Source: a virus
Length of the DNA stretch: 64,000 nt
Direction: 5' to 3' (one strand)
IMG/VR virus record: IMGVR_UViG_3300028196_000009
A program made the position numbers and the translations under genes. Below, one piece after another: positions 244-63,523 of the stretch. The notes under the pieces were generated by a model. It did not search any database. It was not told the DNA's origin and saw nothing but the letters and a program-made list of their open reading frames with translations. Position 1 is the stretch's first letter, and each line of letters begins with the position of its first letter.

Positions 244-1136
244 AGGAAATACAATTAAATATAGAAAAAATGAGAAGGTCAAAGATATTTCTGGCAACTC
301 CTATGTATGGCGGAATGTGTCATGGCATGTATACAAGAAGTTTAGCACAGACTATTGGTACTGCTGCAAAACACGGATTACAGTTACAATTATACTATTT
401 ATTTAATGAAAGTCTCATAACAAGGGCTAGAAACTATGCAGTAGCAAACTTTTTAAAGTCAGACTCTGAGTACTTATTATTTATTGATAGTGATATATCA
501 TGGGAAGACCAGGATTTATTATATATGTTTCATTTAATGGTAGAACAGCCTGAGAAATATAGAATACTTACAGCAATGTACCCTAAAAAAGCTATAGCAT
601 GGGAGAAAGTATTGCATGCCGCTAAGTCAGGAGCATATGATAACAACCCAGCGGGGTTAGAGCAGGTAGCAGGAGATATGGTATTTAATCCTCTTCCTGG
701 CATATATGAGAATGATGAAGTTCCAGTGTACGAACCAGTACAAATTAAAGAAGCAGGTACAGGTTTTATGATGATTCATAGAAGTGTGTTTGAAGAAATG
801 GAAGCAGTAATGCCAGATAGAAAGTACACTCCTGACCATATAAGAGAAGGTATAAGCTCTGAGCAAATAACTGCTTTCTTCGATTGTGTAATTAATGAGG
901 AAAATAGATATCTAAGTGAAGATTATATGTTTTGTGCTAATGCTAGAACGTTAGGTATTAATATTTATACTCTTCCATTTATAAACTTAACTCATACAGG
1001 AAGTTATATCTATAAAGGAAATTTAATAGAAATGGCAAATGCAGGAGTTCATGCTAGTATAGACCATACAACAGCAGAAGAGCTAAGAAGAACTAAAACA
1101 TCAGGTAATAATAGACCAGAGGAAAATAGTTCTTGA
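240..1136 (+). CDS. GT-A fold glycosyltransferase-like protein
   Basis: IFLATPMYGG start, ITRARN, LLFIDSDI (DxD), LSEDY motifs typical of phage GT-A proteins. Confidence 0.75.
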   Translation: MKEIQLNIEKMRRSKIFLATPMYGGMCHGMYTRSLAQTIGTAAKHGLQLQLYYLFNESLITRARNYAVANFLKSDSEYLLFIDSDISWEDQDLLYMFHLMVEQPEKYRILTAMYPKKAIAWEKVLHAAKSGAYDNNPAGLEQVAGDMVFNPLPGIYENDEVPVYEPVQIKEAGTGFMMIHRSVFEEMEAVMPDRKYTPDHIREGISSEQITAFFDCVINEENRYLSEDYMFCANARTLGINIYTLPFINLTHTGSYIYKGNLIEMANAGVHASIDHTTAEELRRTKTSGNNRPEENSS

Positions 1137-1161
1137 CACAAGTCGGAATTTTTGTTATAAT
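1123..1161 (+). promoter_or_regulatory. Sigma70-type promoter with conserved upstream AAAATAGTTC element
   Basis: TTGACA (1133-1138), 17-nt spacer, TGn, TATAAT (1156-1161). Confidence 0.85.
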
Positions 1162-4942: not shown

Positions 4943-4971
4943 TTGACACGAAACTTATTTTCTGTTATAAT
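4943..4971 (+). promoter_or_regulatory. Sigma70-type promoter
   Basis: TTGACA-N17-TATAAT with extended -10 TG. Confidence 0.85.
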
Positions 4972-24749: not shown

Positions 24750-24788
24750 ATTATATCAAAAACTTGAGGTGGTGTCAAGAACTATTTT
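24750..24788 (-). promoter_or_regulatory. Sigma70-type promoter with AAAATAGTTC element
   Basis: AAAATAGTTC-TTGACA-N17-TATAAT; AGGAG RBS before ATG 24729. Confidence 0.85.
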
Positions 24789-44708: not shown

Positions 44709-46763
44709 TTAACTAGCTGCTGCGTACTTCCATCCGTGTACTGTGTGTGCATTCTCAATCAATTCGGCAAAGCCTAATCTTTGTGAAGCTACTAGTACTC
44801 TTCTTTGGTTTGCTACTTCGTAGTCAGATTCTATTGTTACACCTCTTAGTCTAGGCATTACATAGTTTCTTGGGTATACTGCGATAGCACCAGTTTTTGA
44901 AGCTGCTTTAGAAGCGAACTCGTCACATAAGATGACTCTTGAGCCAAATACTTGTCCGATTTCACCACTTAATTTAGTAGCCATGTCACCAACTAGGTTA
45001 GCGTCTTGGAACTCTGCATCTTCAAGTAGGTTGTAGTAACCTTCTTGTGAAACAAGATAAACAACTTCTGATGGATTAACACCATATTTGCCCATATTCT
45101 TTCTTAGACCTAATAGGTCTGCTGCAGTTAAAGCATCGCCTGCTGCAAAGATTCCACCTGAACCGCCACCGACGTCTACAGTATTAAATGAACCATTACT
45201 TGCATGCTCAATCAAACCTTCAAAAGCTGCTGCTGATGTACCATATACACCTTCAGCATTGTCACCTGCTAAGATAGCATTCTCGATACCTCTTGCATGT
45301 GCTCTTACCATTGACTCTCTGATTAAAGGGAGGATAGGCATGATTGCATCTTCTTCAGTCTCGTTACCTAAGTAAGATTGTGAAATAAGCTTTTTAGTTG
45401 ATAATGTAACTTCTGTTAAGTCAACACCATCATTAGCACCTAAAGCGGCGCCTCTAGCTTCTAAGTTTCCTTTTGGATTACTTCCACCAGCTGTTTGTCC
45501 TGATGTAAATTCAGCATAACCAGCGTCTGGTAATACTGGGATAATCATATTAGCGGAATTCATTTGAATTTCTCTAAATAATGGGGCTAATACTAGCTCA
45601 TTTTGAATATCTCTTTCAATTGATGTTGATACTAACTGTTCAAAGTTAGCTGAAGATACTTCTACACCTGCTGAGACATTAACTTTTTCCATTAATCTCT
45701 TAGAGTATTCTGTATCCCAACCTTTACCAGTCGCTAAACCAGCAAATTTTGCATCCATAACATCTTGTTCAAAGTCTTTCTTCCAGTCGCCGTTACCTTG
45801 TCTATTAGCAAAAACTCTTTTAGATTCACGAATATTCATGATTTCTTCTGATTTCTCAGCGAGTTGCTTTTCTAGGCTATCGACTACTGATTTTAAGTCT
45901 TCTTGTTTTTGATTGACTCTAGTTTCTAGGTCGTTCATTAGCCTTTCAGCTCCTGTCAAACCAGCTTCCACTATAGTTTTTGTTTCCATTTCCTTTGCTT
46001 CTTGAACAGCTTTTTGTTCAGCTTCAACTTGAATTGCTTCTTGTTGTTTAGCTTCGTCTGCTGCCTTCTGTTCGGCTTGCTTCATCGCAATTTTAGTCGC
46101 AGTATCTTCTGCTACTTTTTTTGCAAATGCTTCAAGATCGATTGAAGTTTCAGGAGATTTTTTTTCTTCTGACATATCAGTCTCCGTTGATGAGGATTTC
46201 TCCTCGCTTGGCTGCTCAATTTTAACAGCATCTGCTGGTGCAGTTGAGTTAGCCTGTAATATTTGTTTTTGGTACTTTCTGTATTCTTCCATAGAATCAA
46301 AAGACTTTGCTAGTCCAAAGGTTGCCCCTTGGTTGCAAGGTACTGATACTACAGATACTTCGAAAAGTTCCGCGTCTTTTATTTTATATCCATCGGTTTC
46401 AGTCATATATTCAGAGTCCTTACATCTGAATCCAACTGAAAATGCTCCGAGGACACCATCTTTCACCAAATGAGTAATGTCACCTGCAGCTTTAGATATT
46501 TTTGCAGTTATCTCTAAACCTTTGTCTGTGACTTGTAAATCCGTTGCTCTACCGATAGGTTTGTTATAATCATGGTTAAAAAGTATAATTGGATTACCTT
46601 TAAAGTTTTCCAATCCGCCTTTCATCCATGCTTCGCTTTCGATTATATCTCCAGCTCTATCTAGTGCATTTGTACTTGCAGAACCTTTGATGTTTATTCC
46701 ACCATCTTCGGTTTCGCCTAAAGATTTAAAAGTACTCGTCCATTGATAAATTTTACTTGACAT
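44709..46763 (-). CDS. Fused HK97-type prohead protease + scaffold (delta) domain + major capsid protein
   Basis: N-terminal DRAGD, LFNHD, AFSVGF, LFEVSVVSVPCN; coiled coil; HK97-fold capsid; no internal stop. Confidence 0.92.
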   Translation of the reverse strand: MSSKIYQWTSTFKSLGETEDGGINIKGSASTNALDRAGDIIESEAWMKGGLENFKGNPIILFNHDYNKPIGRATDLQVTDKGLEITAKISKAAGDITHLVKDGVLGAFSVGFRCKDSEYMTETDGYKIKDAELFEVSVVSVPCNQGATFGLAKSFDSMEEYRKYQKQILQANSTAPADAVKIEQPSEEKSSSTETDMSEEKKSPETSIDLEAFAKKVAEDTATKIAMKQAEQKAADEAKQQEAIQVEAEQKAVQEAKEMETKTIVEAGLTGAERLMNDLETRVNQKQEDLKSVVDSLEKQLAEKSEEIMNIRESKRVFANRQGNGDWKKDFEQDVMDAKFAGLATGKGWDTEYSKRLMEKVNVSAGVEVSSANFEQLVSTSIERDIQNELVLAPLFREIQMNSANMIIPVLPDAGYAEFTSGQTAGGSNPKGNLEARGAALGANDGVDLTEVTLSTKKLISQSYLGNETEEDAIMPILPLIRESMVRAHARGIENAILAGDNAEGVYGTSAAAFEGLIEHASNGSFNTVDVGGGSGGIFAAGDALTAADLLGLRKNMGKYGVNPSEVVYLVSQEGYYNLLEDAEFQDANLVGDMATKLSGEIGQVFGSRVILCDEFASKAASKTGAIAVYPRNYVMPRLRGVTIESDYEVANQRRVLVASQRLGFAELIENAHTVHGWKYAAAS

Positions 46764-53972: not shown

Positions 53973-54079
53973 GTTCTTTTTTGCATAATGCTTTATGTTG
54001 TTTCCAATTGTCCAGCAAGGTTGCTTACCAAAAACATTAGGAATGCACGAATTCTCTAGGTCAAGTGACTGGTTATAAT

Positions 54080-54157
54080 TTACCTTTTCTTCTTGCCCTT
54101 CTTTTTCTTCTTGGGTCTGCCTACCTTTGAGCCGTATGTTCCTTTGCCTTTTGGCAT
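54080..54157 (-). CDS. 25-aa highly basic peptide (not in ORF track)
   Basis: MPKGKGTYGSKVGRPKKKKKGKKKR preceded by a perfect AAGGAGGTG RBS. Confidence 0.7.
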   Translation of the reverse strand: MPKGKGTYGSKVGRPKKKKKGKKKR

Positions 54158-54169
54158 TATCACCTCCTT

Positions 54170-54328
54170 TTATGTCCACTTTGGGTCTTCCAACGGACAC
54201 TCTGCCCATCTAATCTTAGTTTTGAGGGGCATAAAACAATGACAAACTTTGCAAGTCTTCCAAAACTTATTATAGTGTGGACACTTCTTACAAATCTTTA
54301 ATCTTTCATCTGGTTTCTTCTTTGTCAT
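54170..54328 (-). CDS. 52-aa six-Cys metal-binding peptide (DUF6171-like, not in ORF track)
   Basis: RLKICKKC..CKVCHCFMPLKT..AECP..KW. Confidence 0.75.
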   Translation of the reverse strand: MTKKKPDERLKICKKCPHYNKFWKTCKVCHCFMPLKTKIRWAECPLEDPKWT

Positions 54329-54854
54329 ACTTAATGATTCCTTTGAATGACGGGAAGATTAACCAAACTTTTAGGTGTTTAGGTTTTAATCTTTTTATAG
54401 TTGCAAACCACCACTCTTCGGGTTTGCAATTTACGTGGAAGTTTGTTCCATCTGGAAAGTGTTTCTTTGCTGGGTTGCATGATATAGTGAAAAATACACT
54501 ATGTTTTGCATAGTTGAATATTTCTTCTAGTACTTTATCACACTCCTCTGGATGTATATGTTCCATTACATCTGTGCAAATTACACTATCGTATTGTCCT
54601 GTAGGTTTATGTTGAAAGCCTTCTACTGCAGGATCGTAAAGTGTAGGCATTGGTATATTAGCTGCCTCGTGCATTTTATGTTCTGAATACTGTAGTCCTT
54701 TTCCACAACCATAGTCTAAAACAGATTTAGGTTTATAAGACTTACAAAAGTTTGTAAACTCTCTGGTATGTCTACGTATAGAAGTACCTGTCATTACGCC
54801 CCATTTGGCTTGGTGTATATGTTTGTACCCTATTAATAATTCTAGTGAGTTCAC
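54306..54854 (-). CDS. Class I SAM-dependent methyltransferase
   Basis: VLDYGCGKG, YDPAV, DSVICTDVMEHI. Confidence 0.85.
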   Translation of the reverse strand: MNSLELLIGYKHIHQAKWGVMTGTSIRRHTREFTNFCKSYKPKSVLDYGCGKGLQYSEHKMHEAANIPMPTLYDPAVEGFQHKPTGQYDSVICTDVMEHIHPEECDKVLEEIFNYAKHSVFFTISCNPAKKHFPDGTNFHVNCKPEEWWFATIKRLKPKHLKVWLIFPSFKGIIKYDKEETR

Positions 54855-55000
54855 TTCCTTCTCGGTCTTAAATGATTGTGTTTACTTCTTCTTAGATTCT
54901 TTTTCTTTGCTAGTAATTGTTTTATCCTAGCACTTACTGGAGTTTCTGTTTCTTCTTTTGCTACTGCTTCTTTCAGAGCTTCTTCTATTTGTTTAGCCAT
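54851..55000 (-). CDS. 49-aa protein with basic C-terminus (not in ORF track)
   Basis: MAKQIEEALKEAVAKEETETPVSARIKQLLAKKKNLRRSKHNHLRPRRK; fills the gap with overlaps at both ends. Confidence 0.55.
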   Translation of the reverse strand: MAKQIEEALKEAVAKEETETPVSARIKQLLAKKKNLRRSKHNHLRPRRK

Positions 55001-55175
55001 TTATATGTTCCCAAGCCTCTTTCTCAGTTTTCCAGTGAGTAAGCTGCCCTAAAGCATCTCTTACGTTCCATGTACCTCTCTTAAGATACATCTCCCAACC
55101 CTCTGGTAGTACGTTTTCTACAGACTTTGTTTTTGGTGATTTTTTCAAATCTTTTTTATCGTATTTAAATTCCAT
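54993..55175 (-). CDS. Hypothetical protein
   Basis: 60 aa with GGAG RBS. Confidence 0.55.
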   Translation of the reverse strand: MEFKYDKKDLKKSPKTKSVENVLPEGWEMYLKRGTWNVRDALGQLTHWKTEKEAWEHING

Positions 55176-55185
55176 TTTATTTCTC

Positions 55186-55413
55186 CTAGTGCATAGTTAT
55201 CATTGTAACTACTACTCCTGATAAGGTTACAAGCAAGAATCCTGTAAAACCTATTAAGATAGACTCTATTCTAGTAGTCTTATCGTCGATTCTATTAAAT
55301 CTAGTATCAGACTCACCTTCTATATCTTCTATCTTGTTAAAAATTGTTTTCCAACGTTCAGCACATATAGCTTCATGCTTTGCTAACTCTGCCGCTACAT
55401 CTTTTGCTTCCAT
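55186..55413 (-). CDS. XhlA/holin-like small protein (coiled coil + C-terminal TM)
   Basis: HEAICAERW motif, hydrophobic C-terminus. Confidence 0.55.
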   Translation of the reverse strand: MEAKDVAAELAKHEAICAERWKTIFNKIEDIEGESDTRFNRIDDKTTRIESILIGFTGFLLVTLSGVVVTMITMH

Positions 55414-55459
55414 TGTTTGTTCTCCCCTTTACTCTGTGAATATTTCCACACTTATGAAA

Positions 55460-55498
55460 ATTATATCAAAATATAGAACTCATGTCAAGTACTATTTT
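55460..55498 (-). promoter_or_regulatory. Sigma70-type promoter with AAAATAGTAC element
   Basis: AAAATAGTAC-TTGACA-N17-TATAAT. Confidence 0.85.
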
Positions 55499-57276
55499 CG
55501 TATGGTATAGATTTTAACTGGTTCCGACTTGCCTTTTACAGTTACCTCGTCTAAAAACTCGTAATCATAACCATCCACCAAACTATGTTCTGATATAATT
55601 AAGTCGGCGTCATAATTCTTACAACTAGATTCTAACCTAGCTGCCAGATTAACAGCATCACCCAAAACGGAATAGTCAAAGCGAGTACTACTACCAAAGT
55701 TGCCCACCACACAGTTTCCCGTATTGATGCCAGCTCCTGTGTTAATTTGATCAAGGCCCTCTTCTCTAAGTGTTTCATTTAATTCCTCTAAGGCTATTCT
55801 CATTTCAATAGCCGCTTTTGTTGCATTCTCTATATGGTTCTCGTCAGGAAGCGGAGCTCCCCAGAAAGCCATGATGCAGTCTCCCATATACTTATCAATT
55901 GTACCTCCATGCTTGAGAATAATCTCAGTCTGATTGTCGAGAAAACGATTGATGAGGCTCGTAAGTCCTTGTGGATTTTTTTGATATTTTTCTGAAATCG
56001 GTGTAAATCCTCTGATGTCAGAAAAAAGAAAAGTTAGTTGTTCGGTCGACCCACCGAGTCTCAGTAATGTTGGGTCTTCCTGTAATTTTTTTACTAAGTC
56101 GGGACTTACGTACGTGCCAAATTGTTGTTTGATTTGAAGTTTCTGACGATACTCGGAAAGGAAACTCAGGAAAGTATGATACGCCCAATAAAGAATCGAG
56201 ACTACTACGATACCATTAAGGTTAAGTAAGTAGGAAGATTTATAGGCGTAACCCATTCCATACATAGCACCTACTATAACTAGTACTAATGTTATTATAG
56301 AAAGATAGACTCTACTAACCGTAAGAGCCAATAAGGTGAAGCTAAGTAAACCATAGGCAAGCTTAGCAGAAAAAGTCCATGACGGTGCAGACGGTGCGGT
56401 ACCTGTGATAAGATTGTGTAGTATATTTGCTTGAATTTCATGGGGGTATTTTGCTCCCGCTGGGGTCGGGACTGGATTGGTTACTCCTTCTGCTGTTGTT
56501 CCAAGTATAACAAAAGGAGCATCAATCGGTTCTTTTAAGTATTCTAATAAACTTTGTCTATAGAATGTAGTATTCCAATTCAAAAAGATACGAGCGTTCG
56601 CATCAGTATTCATCAGTGGGTAGTTTGGTATTCTAATCCACTCAATACCTTCTGGTGTTGTTTTTAGCTGGTACGAAGGATCGTTTACGGCGACTCTTAA
56701 GAGTTCCAAGGCGAAACTCGGGTAGAGTTTTGACCCTACGTTTACTACTAGGGGAATACGACGAGTAACCCCGTCTAGCTCCGGCGTAGCGGTTACTACT
56801 CCGATTCCCTTTATTTTTGACTCCAGAGTAGACTCTGTAGGTATAATTCCTGGGTATTCGTATAGCCATGGTAATGGATCCTCTCCTAATTGCGCAGTTC
56901 CTACATGAGGAGCTTTTACGTTGCGCACTTGTGTTGATGCCGCGTAGGCTAACACTGTTGGTTTTATGTCAAGTCTTCTTTCAAAGTAAGTATCTTGCAT
57001 TGGGCCTCGTAAGTCTTTGTTTGGCATTAGTACTGTAATTCCTGGTACTGCCTGGGTCTGCGTTATAGCATCTCCATAAACACTTCTTGGTAAAGGCCAA
57101 CCTCCATAAGTACTTACTGTTTCTTCGTCTATGTCTACTATAAGTATATTCTCATTCTGTACTGGTTCAGTATTCATGATTAAGTAGTCAAATGTTTTGA
57201 GTTCTAAAATTTTAAAAGGATAGGGATTCCATATAAGAAGTCCCATTGCTAGTACAATTGTAATTAGTTTATTCAT
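55492..57276 (-). CDS. CHASE2-domain class III adenylate cyclase
   Basis: IVDIDEE..GGWPLPR (CHASE2), three TM helices, FSDIRGFT, DKYMGDC, RFDYSVLGDAVNLAARLE (all catalytic and ATP-specificity residues). Confidence 0.93.
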   Translation of the reverse strand: MNKLITIVLAMGLLIWNPYPFKILELKTFDYLIMNTEPVQNENILIVDIDEETVSTYGGWPLPRSVYGDAITQTQAVPGITVLMPNKDLRGPMQDTYFERRLDIKPTVLAYAASTQVRNVKAPHVGTAQLGEDPLPWLYEYPGIIPTESTLESKIKGIGVVTATPELDGVTRRIPLVVNVGSKLYPSFALELLRVAVNDPSYQLKTTPEGIEWIRIPNYPLMNTDANARIFLNWNTTFYRQSLLEYLKEPIDAPFVILGTTAEGVTNPVPTPAGAKYPHEIQANILHNLITGTAPSAPSWTFSAKLAYGLLSFTLLALTVSRVYLSIITLVLVIVGAMYGMGYAYKSSYLLNLNGIVVVSILYWAYHTFLSFLSEYRQKLQIKQQFGTYVSPDLVKKLQEDPTLLRLGGSTEQLTFLFSDIRGFTPISEKYQKNPQGLTSLINRFLDNQTEIILKHGGTIDKYMGDCIMAFWGAPLPDENHIENATKAAIEMRIALEELNETLREEGLDQINTGAGINTGNCVVGNFGSSTRFDYSVLGDAVNLAARLESSCKNYDADLIISEHSLVDGYDYEFLDEVTVKGKSEPVKIYTIRK

Positions 57277-57446
57277 ATTAGGTCCCATCCATGGTTTGCT
57301 ATAGCGTTAAGTATAATAAAGATACAAGTTGCCATATGTGTAAACCACCAAATGGTTCGTATGATAGCTATTTTATCTGCTTGAGAATCAGTTTCTCCTA
57401 CCTTCTCTCCAAGGGACTTAGCCCATAATCTCCAGTATTTATTCAT
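57273..57446 (-). CDS. 57-aa conserved phage membrane protein (not in ORF track)
   Basis: WRLWAKSLGEK..DKIAIIRT motif; ATGA-coupled to the cyclase. Confidence 0.7.
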   Translation of the reverse strand: MNKYWRLWAKSLGEKVGETDSQADKIAIIRTIWWFTHMATCIFIILNAIANHGWDLI

Positions 57447-57867
57447 TATCTATTATTATTTTTGTGTTGTTTATTACGGCTAAAGTTACTAGAGTATTCG
57501 CAAAGAGTACAAAGCTCTCATCTTCTTCCCAAAATATTCCACCATATCTTGCCATCTCGGTCCATATTAGTTTATGTGCTATAAGTCTTGTCAAAGAAGG
57601 GTCTGCAGGAAGTAGAGGATTTGCTTCTGATGCATAACCTTGTTGTACTGCATGATAAGTAGTAAGTACGTCTAATGTATTGATTACAAGGTAGTACCTA
57701 TGACTCGGTCTGTCAAAGTCAATTCTCATAGTGAACTTACTACGTTCTATGAGTTTGCCGTCTATCTCTATTTGGTCGTAATCCCAAGGAAGATCAACCT
57801 GAAGATTGACGGATGCGAATACTGGAGTTGTCACCAGAATTAAGAATAATGTTATAGCTTTTACCAT
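57439..57867 (-). CDS. Exported/membrane protein, DUF5658-like C-terminus
   Basis: Signal peptide MVKAITLFLILVTTPVFA; LDVLTT..EANPLL. Confidence 0.55.
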   Translation of the reverse strand: MVKAITLFLILVTTPVFASVNLQVDLPWDYDQIEIDGKLIERSKFTMRIDFDRPSHRYYLVINTLDVLTTYHAVQQGYASEANPLLPADPSLTRLIAHKLIWTEMARYGGIFWEEDESFVLFANTLVTLAVINNTKIIIDNE

Positions 57868-58894
57868 CTTGTTCAATTATTATATTATAGCTTGTCTCAC
57901 CGTTGAGGTCTAGTTGTACTGATTGGACAACGCTACGGATTATTGTAATCTTTTCTGCGTCACCAAATGTTAAAATCTGTGTTGAAGGGTCTTGCCCAAA
58001 TAATGTTCCCTGTATGTCAAACTCTGAGAAAGCTTGTGCACCTCTTGATTCTTTTATTGCGAGTGCATCTAGTTCTTCGATAACTTCTAGTAAGTCTTCG
58101 AGAAAGTTTACATCTAAGTAATCTATGTCTAGTTCGTTAAAAGATAAGTCTTCTTCTAAATAATCTATATCGAGCCCATCGTAAGCGAGGTAATCGACGT
58201 CAAGAATATTATCGTTAGAGTCATCATTTCCAACTTCTCCTGCAGTTTCTTCTTCATCTTTTTTAGGTGGGCTCACAATGAGCATGTTGTTTATGATGTC
58301 AAGTGTTAAATCTAATATCATCGGAGTAGTTGGTGTACTCTCCCACATACTAGTCACTGTCGATTCATATGGTTTATTAAGTATGACCTCTCCCATGGCT
58401 GTTGCAACTACAATCTCGCCACTTGGAAGTCCCATATCGTCAGGAAGTAGAATTACTAGACTTCTTCCTAGTTCATCTACTGTGACTGTAAAATCTGTGC
58501 CACGAATGGCTATTTGCGATGTTGGTGTTTCAATCTTAATATTATTCTTATTAATCTTTCCAATACCGCCAGTAATAAAACGAGCTGTGCCACTCGCAAA
58601 CTTCATTGACATCTGCGACTTGTTAGGGTCGGGGTCAAAAATTACTTTGTCTATTATAAGTTTACTATGTTCTGTAAGTCGGACTTTACTATCGTCTATG
58701 AATGTGATACCTATTCGCCCATTAGCTGTACGCACATCATCCATTTGCTCAATGTCAAATCCTAAGTCCGTGTCGTAGGGTTGGTCTCGAAGGACTTGCC
58801 CTACTCCACGTAGTTCTGTAATGCTTCCTATATCAGCATGAAGTGGTAGTACCACCATCATTCTGAATAACACAAATATTGCTATTAGACGCAT
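57794..58894 (-). CDS. FecR-domain exported protein with acidic linker and curlin-like C-terminus
   Basis: Signal peptide; DDVRTANGRIGITFIDDSKVRL.EHS..TPTSQIAIRGTDF (FecR). Confidence 0.85.
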   Translation of the reverse strand: MRLIAIFVLFRMMVVLPLHADIGSITELRGVGQVLRDQPYDTDLGFDIEQMDDVRTANGRIGITFIDDSKVRLTEHSKLIIDKVIFDPDPNKSQMSMKFASGTARFITGGIGKINKNNIKIETPTSQIAIRGTDFTVTVDELGRSLVILLPDDMGLPSGEIVVATAMGEVILNKPYESTVTSMWESTPTTPMILDLTLDIINNMLIVSPPKKDEEETAGEVGNDDSNDNILDVDYLAYDGLDIDYLEEDLSFNELDIDYLDVNFLEDLLEVIEELDALAIKESRGAQAFSEFDIQGTLFGQDPSTQILTFGDAEKITIIRSVVQSVQLDLNGETSYNIIIEQDGKSYNIILNSGDNSSIRIRQSSG

Positions 58895-59549
58895 TAGTTT
58901 CAATTTTCAACCAGTCGGCTGCTAAAGTAGACTGCTGTTTAATAACTGCAGTATTATTACTTCCCTCTAAGTCGAGGTAGAAGTATTTAGCATCGCTTGA
59001 ACTAGCTCCATATCCAGATTGGATAAAAGTTAAGTCATTGCTGTCTCCTAGAATGTCCATATACATAGTAGCGTAATCCACATCTATGTCTACTTCTGCA
59101 TCATTACTATCGCCATCGATAATCCAATCAATGTCTAAGTAACTTGCTCCAGAAATCTCAGCAATATCCATATCTGCAATGTTGAATGAACCTGTGACAT
59201 CAATATTTATATCATTGCTGTCTGCTGTGTTTAGCCCGGTTGTGTCCATGCTAAAGTCCCATTCATTCGAGTCTCCATCATATTCAAAGAAGCCCGTAAA
59301 GTTATCACCAAATATTCCATCGGTTAAAAACTTATTGGAGCTTCCTATTTGATTGATGTCGAGTGTCATTGATAAACCATTTAGGACTGCTGCTGTCATT
59401 GTACCTGCAATTGCATCGTCACCTCCAATTATATTAGAGCCTCCGAGTTGTTCCAAGTCTATACTAGCATTGTTCCCTGTCTGGTCTATATAGATTTCGT
59501 TGTCTGCGAACAGACCAACTGATAAAAACAAGGCTATTAATATCCTCAT
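58833..59549 (-). CDS. Curlin-like acidic beta-repeat secreted protein
   Basis: Signal peptide MRILIALFLSVGLFA; repeated x-[QD]-x-G-x-[SN]-N units; GGGAGA RBS before ATG 59549. Confidence 0.7.
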   Translation of the reverse strand: MRILIALFLSVGLFADNEIYIDQTGNNASIDLEQLGGSNIIGGDDAIAGTMTAAVLNGLSMTLDINQIGSSNKFLTDGIFGDNFTGFFEYDGDSNEWDFSMDTTGLNTADSNDINIDVTGSFNIADMDIAEISGASYLDIDWIIDGDSNDAEVDIDVDYATMYMDILGDSNDLTFIQSGYGASSSDAKYFYLDLEGSNNTAVIKQQSTLAADWLKIETNASNSNICVIQNDGGTTTSC

Positions 59550-59550
59550 T

Positions 59551-60399
59551 TTAGTCTCCCAAATAGTACTTCCAGTACCCTTTCTCCTGTCCATTTTGTA
59601 CAAGCTCAACTACTGAAGTTTCAATAGCTGCCTGTAATGCAATAAACTTAGGTTCGTTCATAGAGTTTCCACTCTCAACCTCAATTAAGTCATTGTCAGT
59701 AGAGAAACGAAAGAAATCGTTACTCACTCCCACGGAGAGGATTGCTTTTGAAGTAAGGATGTCCAATAAGATTTCTCCTGTACTCACAGAAACCAACCTC
59801 ATTGATACCACCACAGTATCCTCACGATATTGCTTGGAAGTTCCTATACCTAAATAGCGGGCTCCAGCACCCCCGGTTAATACGTTTGTATTGTAATCTA
59901 CAATACCCCCTTCAATGATGACTCCAGCATACAGCAGTGGTAACTGTTTATCTTTCTCATCAAACCTTTCACGAGTAGAACGAATCAACTGACGCTCTTT
60001 TGTTAAATGGTCTAGTCCTTTTCTTTCTACTACTTTGAAGAATCCACTAGATTTCAACGCACGTATTAAATAAGCTTCTGGAGCTTGTGTCATAGCGGAC
60101 GAGAAATCTGCGATTCCGTCTCTTGATTTTCTTTGACCTGTTAAGTCTTCAAATTTGTAAATAGCAACAACGGGCGTTCTTGCTGGTAGTGGTAATTGGG
60201 TAATTTCTTTTGTAACTGGTTTTTCGAGTACAGCGGCTCCTGAGAAACACTCTGCTTTCTGTATGATATCAACAAGATATTCGTAGTCCCCATCGGGGTT
60301 GCTCATGCACGGTGATATGTAACCACTGTGCGTTGCACAACTAGAAACCAAAGTCGCCAATAGGGATAGTAATAGTAGTTGTCTCACCTGTGCTCTCAT
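59551..60399 (-). CDS. csgG: Curli secretion outer-membrane lipoprotein CsgG
   Basis: Lipobox LVSSC; F.DLTGQRK, FKVVERKGLDHLTKERQLIR, GGAGARYLGIG..QYREDTV. Confidence 0.93.
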   Translation of the reverse strand: MRAQVRQLLLLSLLATLVSSCATHSGYISPCMSNPDGDYEYLVDIIQKAECFSGAAVLEKPVTKEITQLPLPARTPVVAIYKFEDLTGQRKSRDGIADFSSAMTQAPEAYLIRALKSSGFFKVVERKGLDHLTKERQLIRSTRERFDEKDKQLPLLYAGVIIEGGIVDYNTNVLTGGAGARYLGIGTSKQYREDTVVVSMRLVSVSTGEILLDILTSKAILSVGVSNDFFRFSTDNDLIEVESGNSMNEPKFIALQAAIETSVVELVQNGQEKGYWKYYLGD

Positions 60400-60895
60400 T
60401 AAATATGGTCATTGTAATTGTAACTCCATCTGTTGTCCAAGTAATCAGATTGTCATACAATTGAAATGAGCCTTCCTCTGCAGGGTTCTCTCCAAACAAA
60501 CTATCTACTAGTTGTCGGGATAACTGTGCATATACTCTACTTTCAAAGTTCTTTATAAATCTTGCGAGAGTTGTATTATCTGCTTCTCTCTTTGCTGCGT
60601 CAGCCAAGGCTTTTATTTCTGCCTTTACTGCGTCCTTTTTTGTTTGTTCTTGTGAGTCAATCGTCAAGTAATGGGAAGATGTTCCACTGCCTGAAAATGA
60701 TGGACTCTTAAATCCGAACTTGATTTCATCTGCTGTAAGTTCCAGAATTAAGATAGGCACAATAATAAGATACCACCAATGAATAGTTCTCTCTACTTTC
60801 GTAGGTTTATTAAAGATAGCATCGTAGTTGTCACGGTAGTTATCCGTGTTCTTCTTACTTATTAATTTGTCGCCCGTTATGTCGTTTTTTGTCAT
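60341..60895 (-). CDS. csgF: Curli assembly protein CsgF-like
   Basis: Mature N-terminus DEIKFGFKSPSFSG..HYL; RFIKNFESRVYAQLSRQL; adjacent to csgG. Confidence 0.75.
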   Translation of the reverse strand: MTKNDITGDKLISKKNTDNYRDNYDAIFNKPTKVERTIHWWYLIIVPILILELTADEIKFGFKSPSFSGSGTSSHYLTIDSQEQTKKDAVKAEIKALADAAKREADNTTLARFIKNFESRVYAQLSRQLVDSLFGENPAEEGSFQLYDNLITWTTDGVTITMTIFNESTGETTTITIPIGDFGF

Positions 60896-61124
60896 TTTCT
60901 TTCATCTGTAAAACAGTGTTTACCTTTTGCTGTAAACGAATCATATCGTTATCGAGCATTCTTATCTGATCAATTAACTTTATCAAAGTCATGTGCATTT
61001 CCTTTACTGTTGGATTGATTACCTTTGTTATCTGAATCCATACGAAGTATACGAAATATCCCAAACCGACCATAGCGACAATTGGAAATCCAAATTGTTG
61101 AATTGCATCAATCACGCCTGACAT
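60855..61124 (-). CDS. YvrJ-like single-TM coiled-coil protein
   Basis: IQQFGFPIVA TM; LDNDMIRL. Confidence 0.55.
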   Translation of the reverse strand: MSGVIDAIQQFGFPIVAMVGLGYFVYFVWIQITKVINPTVKEMHMTLIKLIDQIRMLDNDMIRLQQKVNTVLQMKENDKKRHNGRQINK

Positions 61125-61401
61125 CTATTGTTCCATCCTCCACAAAGTTTTCTGCCCTTGCTATTCTATCTAAATCAGGTGTAAGGTCCAGGGCAGACGA
61201 TACACTTGTGTCTAATTTTATCATGTCATTATTTATAGTCTTGACTCTCGTAATAAGACTGGTCGTAAACATTTTTAGAGTATTTATTTGACCTACCACG
61301 CCATCCATAATTTGTCGCATAATGAGAAATATAAAACCTCCCATAACTACTGCAGCTGCAATGGGTGCTCCAACTTTTGCTATTAAGTCGAAAATATCCA
61401 T
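61108..61401 (-). CDS. Single-TM coiled-coil protein (paralog of the downstream gene)
   Basis: IAKVGAPIAAA TM; INNDMIKL; start moved to ATG 61401. Confidence 0.55.
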   Translation of the reverse strand: MDIFDLIAKVGAPIAAAVVMGGFIFLIMRQIMDGVVGQINTLKMFTTSLITRVKTINNDMIKLDTSVSSALDLTPDLDRIARAENFVEDGTIDVRRD

Positions 61402-61559
61402 TGGTTTACCTGAAAACCTCCTAACATACAGAAAAACACTGAAGCTTGAATAATGCTTGCATAAGTTATCTGACGCATGGGGTGAATTTGTGTAAGTTTT
61501 TCGATCCATGACTCGCTGGGGCTTAGGTTAACTGCTTGTAATACTTTCTTAGAATCCAA
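61383..61559 (-). CDS. Small membrane protein
   Basis: TTG start with GGAG RBS; VNLSPSESW..HPMRQITYASIIQ plus TM. Confidence 0.5.
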   Translation of the reverse strand: MDSKKVLQAVNLSPSESWIEKLTQIHPMRQITYASIIQASVFFCMLGGFQVNQWIFST

Positions 61560-61866
61560 CGCTTTCTCCACACCCACATCTGTAGGTTTCCTTTGGATTA
61601 ACAAATACAAAACCTTCGTTTAATCCTTCTATTTTATAGTCTAGTGTGAGACCTTCTATATAGGGTGCTGAATCAGGGGATATGCGAAACGCTATACGCC
61701 CCCAATCCAGTACCAAATCACTTGAATAAGTTTCACTACAATAATCAAAACTATACTCCATACCACCGCAGCCGCCCCCAGTAAGACCAAGTCTAAATAC
61801 ATGGTTCTCCTGGTGTGCCGCTTTCTGTACAAGTCTAGTATACGCTTCATGAGTGACTTCAATCAT
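61549..61866 (-). CDS. iscA: A-type Fe-S carrier (IscA/ErpA/HesB family)
   Basis: GGGCGGMEY, LDY..GF.F.NP, CGCGES. Confidence 0.92.
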   Translation of the reverse strand: MIEVTHEAYTRLVQKAAHQENHVFRLGLTGGGCGGMEYSFDYCSETYSSDLVLDWGRIAFRISPDSAPYIEGLTLDYKIEGLNEGFVFVNPKETYRCGCGESVGF

Positions 61867-61869
61867 TTC

Positions 61870-61947
61870 CTAAAGGACTTCTCGCCATACGTTTTGTATT
61901 CTGCTAGATTTCATTAGTTTGTGAATATTTTTCATTATTAGTCTCAT
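61870..61947 (-). CDS. 25-aa peptide overlapping the iscU 3' end (not in ORF track)
   Basis: AAGGAGA RBS; MRLIMKNIHKLMKSSRIQNVWREVL. Confidence 0.4.
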   Translation of the reverse strand: MRLIMKNIHKLMKSSRIQNVWREVL

Positions 61948-62341
61948 TTTTCTCCTTCCAGTTTTGGATTGCTTGTTTTATAGAATCCTCAGCTAGTACG
62001 GAGCAGTGCAATTTAATCGGAGGCAATTCTAGTGCTTCCGCTATATCTCTGTCTTTTATTTCTTTTGCTTGTGTTATTGTTTTACCCTTAAGCAACTCTA
62101 CAAATAATGTAGAAGATGCGATAGCACTACCGCATCCATAAGTCTTAAATCGGACATCCTGTATAACATCTGTATCAGGGTCGATTTTTAAGTCTAATTT
62201 CATTACATCTCCACAGGCGGGTGCTCCAGTCATTCCTGTAGCTACTGTGGGATCTTTAGGATCAAAACGTCCAACGCTAAATTGTTTAGGACTATTAAGT
62301 ACTTCGTAGAATCGGTCTGTGACCTTTTTACTGTACGCCAA
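61904..62341 (-). CDS. iscU: Fe-S cluster scaffold IscU
   Basis: (M)AYSKKV from TTG 62341; GAPACGDVM, FKTYGCGSAIASS, LPPIKLHCSVLAED. Confidence 0.95.
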   Translation of the reverse strand: MAYSKKVTDRFYEVLNSPKQFSVGRFDPKDPTVATGMTGAPACGDVMKLDLKIDPDTDVIQDVRFKTYGCGSAIASSTLFVELLKGKTITQAKEIKDRDIAEALELPPIKLHCSVLAEDSIKQAIQNWKEKNETNNEKYSQTNEI

Positions 62342-62522
62342 CTGTTTTGATTCCAAAGACATAGTTTTCGGCTGCATTTTCTGCAAACGACTCGCTATGT
62401 CCTGTATATAACTCCTCTGCTATCTTAGTATCATTTTCAAAAAACGTGGCACCATAGTGTCCGTCTTTCTTGAAAGTCTCTGCCCTAAGGTTATCCTTAG
62501 TAAAGCTAGATAAATGTATCAT
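62328..62522 (-). CDS. Small conserved phage protein
   Basis: HSESFAENAAENYVFG motif. Confidence 0.55.
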   Translation of the reverse strand: MIHLSSFTKDNLRAETFKKDGHYGATFFENDTKIAEELYTGHSESFAENAAENYVFGIKTVGVQ

Positions 62523-62989
62523 TGTGGCCCCTCCTTTAAAAGTTTTTCCATTAATTTTCCATAATTACCCTGTCCAAAAGGTAGTTCTGAATTTATCTGT
62601 ACATTAGTTTGATTTTTGATATTAGAAGCTTTCGCTTTCTCTAGGTCTGCCATGGCTTTGATTTCATCCATGCGCATCTTGTGAGCCATACCTAGTAAGT
62701 CTGCTATATCTTTATTAGTATAAATTTGAGATTCGTCTGCTTCGTCGAGCTTCTTCTCTATGATGTCGTCTAGTGTACTTGCTAGCTTAAATCTATTTCT
62801 GTAGCCTGTATCTAAGTACACTTGGTCTACGTATGCCTTTATTTCTCGCTTCCCTAGATATTCCTGAATAGTATTCTCATCTAGTTTGAGGCGTATGCAC
62901 ACGGCCTGAATGTTGCCTAACTCTAAGTAGGCATTTGCTATTTCTAGTCCTTCTGGACTCATTTTTGTTGCAATTTCATTCTTTTTCAT
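62519..62989 (-). CDS. terS: Terminase small subunit (T5-like)
   Basis: MSPEGL..AYL, GYRNR..LDDIIEKKLDE, DIADLL.MAHKMRMDE.K resemble T5 TerS. Confidence 0.85.
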   Translation of the reverse strand: MKKNEIATKMSPEGLEIANAYLELGNIQAVCIRLKLDENTIQEYLGKREIKAYVDQVYLDTGYRNRFKLASTLDDIIEKKLDEADESQIYTNKDIADLLGMAHKMRMDEIKAMADLEKAKASNIKNQTNVQINSELPFGQGNYGKLMEKLLKEGPQ

Positions 62990-62995
62990 ACTTGA

Positions 62996-63034
62996 ATTAT
63001 ATCAAAAAATATATCGTGTGTCAAGAACTATTTT
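62996..63034 (-). promoter_or_regulatory. Sigma70-type promoter with AAAATAGTTC element; predicted leaderless terS mRNA
   Basis: TTGACA-N17-TATAAT, then 6 nt, then ATG; no RBS. Confidence 0.85.
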
Positions 63035-63123
63035 CGTATGCATCGTCACGATGCTAATCTTTGCGTCTTTTTATAATTATGAAATTTTTTAAAAGTCGTA
63101 CATACGGGGGAGTAAAATACACA

Positions 63124-63151
63124 GGGGGTGGACGTAGTCCACTAACCCCCC
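63124..63151 (-). terminator. GC-rich hairpin ending the leftward small-gene operon
   Basis: GGGGGG-TTA-GTGGAC-TAC-GTCCAC-CCCC followed by TGTGTATTTT, just after the 63160 stop. Confidence 0.6.
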
Positions 63152-63159
63152 CTATATGC

Positions 63160-63315
63160 TTAGGCTAACGCGACAGCTAAAGAGCCGACCATAACCAAAA
63201 TGCTAAGACCTAATAAAAAGAATACTATCATTTCGTTTTCATTTAGGTAATTAATCACTCTTTGTTTTTGCCTTAAAAACTTTTCGTGATTTCGTTGTTG
63301 TCGTGGCGTCCTCAT
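63160..63315 (-). CDS. 51-aa membrane peptide (not in ORF track)
   Basis: Basic N-terminus plus C-terminal TM; ATGA-coupled to the upstream ORF. Confidence 0.5.
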   Translation of the reverse strand: MRTPRQQRNHEKFLRQKQRVINYLNENEMIVFFLLGLSILVMVGSLAVALA

Positions 63316-63386
63316 GATTGCAACGCTACCCATATTGCAACTGCTAAGATTAATGCACTTGCTGTTAATACTATTACTGATTCCAT
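63312..63386 (-). CDS. 24-aa hydrophobic peptide (not in ORF track)
   Basis: MESVIVLTASALILAVAIWVALQS; GGGAG RBS; coupled on both sides. Confidence 0.45.
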   Translation of the reverse strand: MESVIVLTASALILAVAIWVALQS

Positions 63387-63523
63387 TATTTTTGCTCCCA
63401 TGTTATAAGGATATTAAATCCTTTATTTCTATATGCCCATGCTCTATTTTGAATCCATGCCATTTTTCCTTTCAGAACTACAACCCCTGGATTTGTATCA
63501 CTTGTTATTGTTAATGTTGCCAT
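63386..63523 (-). CDS. 45-aa hypothetical protein (not in ORF track)
   Basis: AAGGAG RBS; TAATG-coupled. Confidence 0.5.
   Translation of the reverse strand: MATLTITSDTNPGVVVLKGKMAWIQNRAWAYRNKGFNILITWEQK

Follow-up and report, generated by a model that had tools for sequence, protein, structure and literature searches.

Phages of marine bacteria carry genes for curli-type (type VIII) secretion. The viral type VIII secretion system (T8SS) region described by Wittmers et al. 2022 (PMC9599517) consists of 'HK', CsgF, CsgG, CsgA/B, FecR, an optional second CsgA/B, and an adenylate cyclase. These authors traced the module to SAR11 podophages of the HTVC023P type and to myophages, detecting it at each of the 65 GOV2.0 stations and also in metatranscriptomes, with viral curli proteins making up ~0.1% of assembled viral proteins in GOV2.0; CHASE2 is never mentioned. 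A pelagimyophage curli cluster was reported by Zaragoza-Solas et al. 2020 (PMC7029224), and the cluster of phage Melnitz was discussed by Buchholz et al. 2022 (PMC9004378); FecR and the cyclase go unmentioned in both. Here we describe such a module in IMG/VR record IMGVR_UViG_3300028196_000009, of which a stretch of 64,000 nt (the window, to which all coordinates refer) was analyzed. Judged by homology and gene order, the window module is a copy of the viral T8SS-FecR-cyclase module of SAR11 and OM43 phages. The module is not new, because the coupling of curli, FecR, and cyclase genes in phages is already published (PMC9599517). New here are the T5-like carrier; the location between the terminase genes terS and terL; corrections to the published labels 'histidine kinase' and 'iron regulator'; and a FecR protein that belongs to the secretion block yet resembles the plug heads encoded beside bacterial CHASE2 cyclases.

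The reading that we favor, at slightly less than an even chance, is that the window holds a copy of the T8SS module whose FecR head feeds CHASE2, with cyclic AMP (cAMP) as the read-out. CsgG and CsgF would build an outer-membrane channel in the infected cell, and the curlin-like protein would be exported. The FecR head would be the periplasmic partner of the CHASE2 domain, by analogy with bacterial FecR-CHASE2 gene pairs. cAMP in the infected cell would then report the state of the phage-built pore and fiber, or of the envelope. Few accessory cassettes are commoner in ocean phages than this module, which would give curli-less hosts a new surface structure. If the FecR head is the CHASE2 input, this would also settle what a widespread bacterial sensor domain detects.

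Nine minus-strand open reading frames (ORFs) extend from 61401 to 55492, where an earlier reading of the window made without database searches (the sequence-only reading) had placed them. It had described one tightly coupled operon of named parts, and the nine ORFs, their families, and their overlapping or abutting junctions are confirmed: from TMa, the first gene, through the cyclase, each junction either overlaps by 8–83 nt or leaves the ORFs 1 nt apart (by ORF coordinates and with the starts chosen here). It had also spread the parts over outer membrane, periplasm, inner membrane, and cytoplasm; this naming is correct, the locations being predicted. Its list of module parts needs one deletion: seven parts stand and the 145-aa protein recurs in ~25 loci, but the 57-aa transmembrane (TM) protein is found in only three related loci. 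PHROGs holds a family for seven of the nine proteins, every one labeled 'unknown function'.

The closest annotated counterparts are those of Pelagibacter phage HTVC008M and Methylophilales phage Melnitz: two small hypothetical genes, CsgF, CsgG, curlin, FecR, one further gene, and the cyclase. Full-length identity of the window cyclase is 38% with the HTVC008M enzyme and 36% with the one from Melnitz. The published pelagiphage modules have the same genes in the same order, opening with one or two small membrane proteins and allowing an extra gene before the cyclase, and likewise lack CsgE, CsgC, and CsgD. The pelagimyophage csgF and csgG genes cited in the sequence-only reading are a real precedent (PMC7029224). 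Two things set the window apart: its carrier is a T5-like siphophage with the module between terS and terL, and the slot before the cyclase is filled by the 145-aa DUF5658-like protein, not by a second curlin.

The carrier is, from its encoded proteins, an uncultured T5-like marine siphophage. Its terL product is 50% identical to the large terminases of T5-like phages, and because genes for a tape-measure protein, a major tail protein, and a lambda-J-like central fiber are present, it is taken as a siphophage. Podophages of the HTVC023P type have 58.8 kb and 42% G+C, whereas the window has at least 64 kb and 36% G+C; related 75-kb contigs are rated 72–77% complete. No tRNAs were found in the window. 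The prohead protease and major capsid protein, encoded by two adjacent genes in T5-like phages, form a single 684-aa ORF here (44709–46763, minus strand), ~34% identical to those adjacent genes.

Relatives of the cyclase occur on at least 600 IMG/VR contigs, of which the best 80 (cyclases 48–89% identical) were compared. All 80 belong to the T5-like lineage, and in 80 of 80 the module lies between terS and terL with the cyclase as its last gene. It is flanked by the terS side and by a conserved 75-aa gene, a few kb before terL. In this gene-neighborhood survey, of the kind that the sequence-only reading had called for, the module genes are co-conserved, and the order TMa-TMb-CsgF-CsgG-curlin-FecR-[0 to 2.2 kb]-cyclase is the same in all 26 related loci that have more than 6.5 kb upstream of the cyclase. 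The spacing of FecR and cyclase is variable, up to 2.2 kb, and in some loci FecR directly abuts the cyclase. As a unit, the module is shared by three or more phage morphotypes, and the T5-like lineage is the third phage lineage to have it, there as a fixed part.

CsgG (59551..60399, minus strand, as are all module genes; PF03783, 8e-48) is an outer-membrane lipoprotein channel by family, and matches E. coli CsgG (4UV3) at 5.9e-46. A lipobox, LVSSC, can be read from the sequence at residues 17–21. The constriction residues of the E. coli channel are, we take it, Tyr51, Asn55, and Phe56; at these positions of the alignment Phe56 is kept, Asn55 is replaced by Asp, and Tyr51 is not kept. The CsgF homolog (60341..60895; PF10614, 3e-19) is best conserved at its mature N-terminus, FGFKSPSFSGSG, across 25 viral sequences. 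The conserved N-terminal pattern is F-x-F-K-S/N-P-S-F-S/N-G, with F62, P65, F67, G69, and H75–I79 invariant. A CsgF profile aligns this stretch with the start of E. coli CsgF as solved in complex with CsgG (6L7A), at the weak E-value of 0.04; a single-sequence search against the PDB gave no match. Conservation of the pore-binding peptide argues against a phage CsgF that no longer pairs with CsgG. By these sequence features, CsgG and CsgF have the requirements for an outer-membrane channel in the infected cell.

The next gene encodes the very acidic, secreted curlin-like protein (58833..59549; PF07012 (Curlin_rpt), 1.5e-5, one repeat above cut-off). Its start is most likely Met21 of the listed ORF (59549), 1 nt past the csgG stop, which exposes a signal peptide. 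About eight strand-turn-strand repeats with a periodic G-x-S-N follow, and the alignment has periodic invariant G, N, and Q columns. The AlphaFold2 model is all beta, built of stacked strand-turn-strand units (predicted local distance difference test score, pLDDT, 82.5; predicted template modeling score, pTM, 0.79). A Foldseek search of this model against the PDB and the Swiss-Prot AlphaFold models returned weak beta-helix matches (GlmU, adhesins, FapC), all with E above 0.001, and did not retrieve CsgA. Taken with its place directly after csgG, the modeled beta-solenoid is likely the exported subunit.

These three proteins recall E. coli curli (CsgBAC / CsgDEFG) in the homologous CsgG, the N-terminal pore-binding motif of CsgF, and the secreted Q/N/G-repeat beta-solenoid encoded next. 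The phage module differs in lacking CsgE, CsgC/H, and CsgD; in its very acidic subunit, with a single repeat over the Pfam cut-off; and in the added FecR, CHASE2-cyclase, and small TM genes. Canonical subunits of the CsgA/CsgB type form amyloid and have several Sx5QxGxGNxAx3Q repeats; the columns that recur in the phage subunit are G-x-x-N and Q. The nine ORFs have no Pfam match to CsgE or CsgC, and six-frame searches of five related phage records with PF10627 and PF10610 were negative while an E. coli control was positive, so the absence of csgE and csgC noted in the sequence-only reading is borne out. For CsgD the only check made, Pfam on the nine ORFs, gave no match.

Upstream of csgF lie the two small membrane proteins. 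TMa (61108..61401; phrog_18771, 2.9e-26) is a 97-aa bitopic membrane protein with an N-terminal TM helix followed by ~60 helical residues; its true start is Met37 of the listed ORF (61401), as the coordinates of the sequence-only reading imply, and the phrog_18771 alignment begins at residue 37 of the longer ORF. Its 89-aa paralog TMb (60855..61124; phrog_18771, 1.6e-27) overlaps the TMa stop by 17 nt. Neither has a Pfam match at E up to 0.1, and the alignment of 16 TMa/TMb sequences has no invariant His. Histidine kinases have a DHp helix whose phospho-accepting His is conserved, and an HATPase_c domain; at 97 and 89 aa, without a Pfam match or an invariant His, TMa and TMb cannot be histidine kinases. 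The label 'histidine kinase' in PMC9599517 does not hold for them, and 'iron regulator' does not hold for the FecR protein.

A different role for these proteins follows from the pinholin/secretin idea of Buchholz et al., in which the CsgG(-CsgF) channel and two small holin-like proteins permeabilize the envelope, so that the module is a lysis-timing device that the cyclase and FecR tune. We think this improbable. It has been proposed for Melnitz (PMC9004378), and TMa and TMb are indeed small and N-terminally anchored; the named Atlas feature clusters nearest to them include BhlA-type holin-like peptides (0.82–0.85), with YvrJ (0.88) also near TMb, which are weak leads only. The PHROG scan of ten small ORFs around the module, however, found no endolysin, holin, or spanin family; CsgG belongs to the outer membrane, which is not the holin site of action; and a conserved CsgF pore-binding peptide with a dedicated curlin-like substrate favors secretion over leakage.

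The secreted FecR-fold protein (57794..58903; PF04773, 3.7e-11; phrog_37870, 1.4e-73) is modeled as a signal peptide, a beta head (~23–195), an acidic linker (~206–263), a helix, and a small C-terminal beta domain (300–363). The head superposes on the PupR CCSSD (6OVK chain R) with a Z of 16.1 and a root-mean-square deviation (rmsd) of 2.4 Å over 140 residues. Its first ~90 residues also match 5IX9 (Z 6.7, rmsd 2.2 Å, 72 of 76 residues aligned, 28% identity), where a Z below 8 can reflect a common arrangement. A search of the FecR-family profile against PDB sequences gave nothing useful and did not find 5IX9; a search with the C-terminal domain alone found nothing. On the predicted model, this is a soluble periplasmic protein with a plug-like head.

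The family name suggests something else. FecR could be a ferric-citrate-type regulator tied to iron uptake (suggested in PMC9599517), perhaps acting with the NifU/IscU-like and HesB/IscA-like genes that lie directly upstream in the same transcription unit. Apart from the Pfam name and these neighbors, the comparison runs the other way. The phage protein shares the periplasmic domain fold of the FecR/PupR anti-sigma regulators but has no cytoplasmic anti-sigma domain and no TM anchor, its signal peptide running straight into the beta head; nor does Pfam find, among the nine ORFs of the operon, a FecI-type (ECF) sigma factor or a TonB-dependent transducer. Without the anti-sigma domain and the anchor, it is not a FecR-type iron regulator or anti-sigma factor. 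Moreover, the recurrent bacterial partner of FecR is CHASE2, not FecA, and several related loci have the module but no Fe-S genes. An iron sensor is therefore very improbable.

The resemblance to 5IX9 points elsewhere. 5IX9 is the N-terminal retention module of a Marinomonas RTX adhesin, and served as the template for the LapA plug (bioRxiv 10.1101/198937). RTX adhesins of the LapA/MpIBP type are held in their export pore by such a module; the start of the phage FecR head resembles it, and a long flexible linker comes next, as in LapA. Unlike these adhesins, the phage protein starts with a Sec signal peptide and lacks both an RTX secretion signal (no HemolysinCabind match) and a type I secretion system; the pore at hand is CsgG and not a TolC-like channel, and its threading is conjecture. 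FecR might nonetheless be a pore-threaded tether, the type VIII counterpart of LapA retention: the head in the periplasm touching CHASE2, the linker passing through CsgG-CsgF, and the C-terminal domain outside, anchoring or capping the fiber. This is a long shot; if it were true, fiber assembly, load, or loss would be converted directly to cAMP, and the orphan CHASE2 would gain a defined protein ligand.

The linker itself (residues 206–263) has no confident structure (pLDDT below 50). Its coding region (58100–58290, minus strand) specifies three to five LD(I/V)D(Y/F)L-type repeats (LDxDYL), and in an alignment of 35 sequences several of its Asp and Leu positions are invariant. It might be a Ca-binding segment, or might fold on binding. 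The idea that the FecR C-terminus forms curlin-like strands is not supported: when its last 75 residues were compared with the curlin alignment by hhalign, P was 0.029, the same value as for the FecR head used as negative control.

The CHASE2 receptor adenylate cyclase (55492..57288; 598 aa; PF05226, 1.7e-30, and PF00211 (Guanylate_cyc), 1.8e-20) closes the operon. As read from its TM segments, it comprises TM1, a periplasmic CHASE2 domain (~22–303; the PF05226 match covers residues 12–311), three TM helices, and a class III cyclase domain (414–596). It matches P. aeruginosa CyaB (3R5G) at 4.3e-37. Residues D424, K466, D470, S540, N547, and R551 align to 3R5G and are invariant in 35 viral cyclases 54–89% identical to the window cyclase. 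We take D424 and D470 to be the metal-binding Asp residues, K466 and S540 to specify adenine (ATP), and N547 and R551 to stabilize the transition state. With these six catalytic residues kept, the cyclase domain is, by sequence criteria, intact and ATP-specific class III (IIIb-like), as the sequence-only reading had held of a CHASE2 class III adenylate cyclase.

A search of five related phage records for cNMP-binding proteins was negative, so any cAMP receptor must be the host's; the earlier suggestion that cAMP could reprogram host CRP regulation thus depends on the host. In one streamlined marine alphaproteobacterial single-cell genome of 1.4 Mb (contig C4 of G005, 105124–109440, locus L094), a CHASE2 cyclase (106669–107679) is flanked on both sides by ORFs with cNMP-binding domains, and a gene for a 977-aa FecR and RTX protein lies ~6 kb away from it, an arrangement that resembles a small self-contained cAMP circuit.

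A different reading is that adopted by Wittmers et al. and Zaragoza-Solas et al., for whom the cassette is a fiber-making module of auxiliary metabolic genes: the fibers would serve aggregation ('sibling capture') or block superinfection, FecR and the cyclase would do no more than regulate how the fiber is expressed or secreted, and cAMP would be an input and not a read-out. Besides these published interpretations (PMC9599517, PMC7029224), it has in its favor that pore, CsgF, and curlin-like subunit are all present; that in four RNA libraries contig depth peaks strongly over the curlin gene (subject to the caveats on such contigs given below); and that a FecR-domain gene of S. meliloti acts downstream of cAMP. 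Several features fit it poorly. The module and the five related phage records encode no transcription factor or cNMP-binding protein; the genes form a single tightly coupled operon, so cAMP could hardly regulate the transcription of these genes in time; Melnitz infections showed no clumping (PMC9004378); and CHASE2 faces the periplasm, which suits sensing over expression control. We regard this explanation as possible, though rather unlikely.

The favored reading, in which the FecR head feeds CHASE2, takes its cue from bacteria. FecR and CHASE2 gene pairs are known from the Burkholderia BiofilmReg operon and from the P. aeruginosa PA4035/PA4036-type pair (PMC5192318). In such pairs a secreted FecR-domain protein is encoded beside a membrane protein with periplasmic CHASE2, and in Alphaproteobacteria the output is also a class III cyclase. 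The 80 closest bacterial homologs of the window cyclase are full-length CHASE2 cyclases with 31–38% identity, mostly from Alphaproteobacteria, and for ~35 of these a gene with a FecR domain lies no more than 10 kb away, in many cases immediately upstream. Where it does so in several genomes of Bradyrhizobium and its relatives, its product of 1000–2500 residues begins with a FecR domain, continues with cadherin-like or Big_9 domains, and ends in RTX repeats; adhesins that are secreted by a type I system and retained have this domain order.

These bacterial partners differ from the phage protein in carrying LysM, or cadherin-like domains and RTX repeats, and they have no curli genes nearby: CsgG, CsgF, and curlin are absent within 10 kb of all 80 cyclases. 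Conversely, a close CsgG (42–50% identity) occurs in 7 of 401 sampled alphaproteobacterial genomes, with CsgF in all seven and a curlin-like match in six, and none of the seven CsgG genes has FecR or a cyclase within 10 kb. Because bacterial CHASE2 loci and curli loci keep apart in this way, the joining of a curli pore to FecR-CHASE2 is a phage feature in the sampled genomes.

To follow which parts travel together, identity to the window was compared domain by domain across 29 complete loci (Spearman correlation). Three blocks emerge: TMa with TMb; CsgF, CsgG, curlin, and both FecR domains (0.75–0.96); and CHASE2, the TM segment, and the cyclase domain (0.75–0.85). The module has recombined at two places, the TMb/csgF junction and the slot preceding the cyclase, which puts FecR in the secretion block. 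Between sublineages, the CsgF-CsgG-curlin-FecR block has been exchanged independently of the TM pair and of the cyclase.

Such block-wise recombination, which separates the cyclase from T8SS and FecR, could mean that the cyclase is an independent auxiliary gene that happens to sit beside the T8SS block without a functional link. Podophage versions of the module often have no cyclase (PMC9599517), and unrelated class III cyclases stand alone in other phages (Acinetobacter phage matches). Nonetheless, the cyclase is the last module gene in T4-like phages as well as in 80 of 80 T5-like loci, often overlapping the preceding gene, and the FecR-CHASE2 pairing recurs independently in bacteria. An unconnected cyclase thus seems quite unlikely.

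The favored coupling of the FecR head to CHASE2 has several results weighing against it. The FecR head tracks CsgG (0.96) and curlin (0.89), and CHASE2 at only 0.62. In one locus (L009, IMGVR_UViG_3300028008_002178) TMa (91%), CHASE2 (76%), and the cyclase domain (87%) are window-like, but CsgG (47%), curlin (29%), and the FecR C-terminal domain (20%) are foreign: here the T8SS and FecR block was swapped beside a kept cyclase, and loci L040 and L079 have the reverse pattern. The cyclase-less podophage modules imply that FecR can work without the cyclase. In the CyaD1 neighborhood of S. meliloti, the FecR-domain gene SMc02177 is a target of cAMP and Clr and is not needed for signal perception (PMC5498481). 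The negative search for cNMP-binding proteins in five related phage records and the absence of clumping with Melnitz count here too, and RNA-library contigs can neither prove transcription, rank genes, nor exclude DNA carry-over.

These results also weigh against the relay proposed in the sequence-only reading, in which the state of the solenoid passes through FecR to cAMP: FecR follows CsgG and curlin over CHASE2, and T8SS and FecR blocks are swapped against an unchanged cyclase. FecR-domain genes do accompany bacterial CHASE2 sensors (PMC5192318), but its Sinorhizobium precedent is weakened, in that SMc02177 is dispensable for perception (PMC5498481). Co-segregation is in any case no proof of contact, because adjacent genes co-segregate by linkage alone. 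The FecR head is also the best-kept part of the swapped block (59% in L009), as expected if the head meets a conserved partner. That the genes work together and that the FecR head is what CHASE2 sees are, taken jointly, about evenly poised between true and false.

Transcription of the module can be predicted from promoter-like sites. The window contains five perfect TTGACA-17-TGnTATAAT sites, where ~0.14 would be expected by chance, and all five have a T-rich spacer end. One (62996..63024, minus strand; sigma-70-type, TTGACA-17-TGaTATAAT, 12 of 12) stands directly before terS, and is the only strong promoter upstream of the module. It probably starts a transcription unit of terS, a 64-aa ORF, the IscU-like and IscA-like genes, and the nine module genes. 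A second perfect sigma-70-type site (55460..55488, minus strand), 4 nt past the cyclase stop, is predicted to mark the start of the next unit, that of the conserved 75-aa gene. The others, identified by motif, are at 24750–24778 (minus strand), 1133–1161 (plus strand), and 4943–4971 (plus strand). Two sites thus serve the plus-strand arm (nucleotide-metabolism genes) and three the minus-strand arm (structural genes), and from the motif alone it looks as if one strong host-type promoter class is used throughout the phage, as with T5 early promoters. Because the same promoter type serves both arms, the late transcript of the sequence-only reading loses its footing: 'late' is plausible by position only.

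Metatranscriptome contigs from four runs, each a separate study, cover 25–28 of 30 bins of 54000–63500. All four runs yield a contig of 1.2–1.4 kb, from terS to the IscA-like gene, that ends at 62941–62978, near the predicted start; this is a weak hint. Over the curlin-like gene and the adjoining 3' end of csgG (58755–60022), contig depth in the four runs exceeds that of the rest of the operon 5–20 times, which may reflect high curlin mRNA or the summed contigs of related strains. The bin 55268–55584, from the cyclase stop to the next gene, has no cover in three of the four runs, a gap that does not argue for termination. The FecR and cyclase ORFs contain minus-strand terminator-like sites, which were treated as chance.

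Two further ORFs fill the variable slot before the cyclase. The 145-aa protein (57439..57876) has a signal or anchor sequence and a DUF5658-like hydrophobic C-terminal half (PF18902, 23.3 bits, under the 25.2 cut-off); its family, present in ~25 related loci, falls among viral Atlas clusters at 0.92–0.97. The 57-aa membrane protein (57273..57446; phrog_1679, 6.8e-16) has a gene with 76% DNA identity to Prochlorococcus phage P-TIM68. Since only three related loci have it and phrog_1679 is a widespread phage family, it is a sporadic insert and not a part of the module.

The surroundings of the module vary as well. The NifU/IscU-like and HesB/IscA-like Fe-S assembly genes (61549–62386, minus strand), which the predicted transcription unit includes between terS and the module, recur in many though not all relatives; in L049, L050, L066, and L068 their place is instead downstream of the cyclase. 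The 75-aa protein encoded after the cyclase (55186–55413, minus strand), with its own promoter, has a helical N-terminal part and a C-terminal TM anchor; it belongs to no PHROG family and is absent from HTVC008M and Melnitz, and is present in 76 of the 80 related IMG/VR loci. At 55206, RNA-library contigs of several runs depart from the window into a shared different sequence, marking a strain-level breakpoint just downstream of the module.

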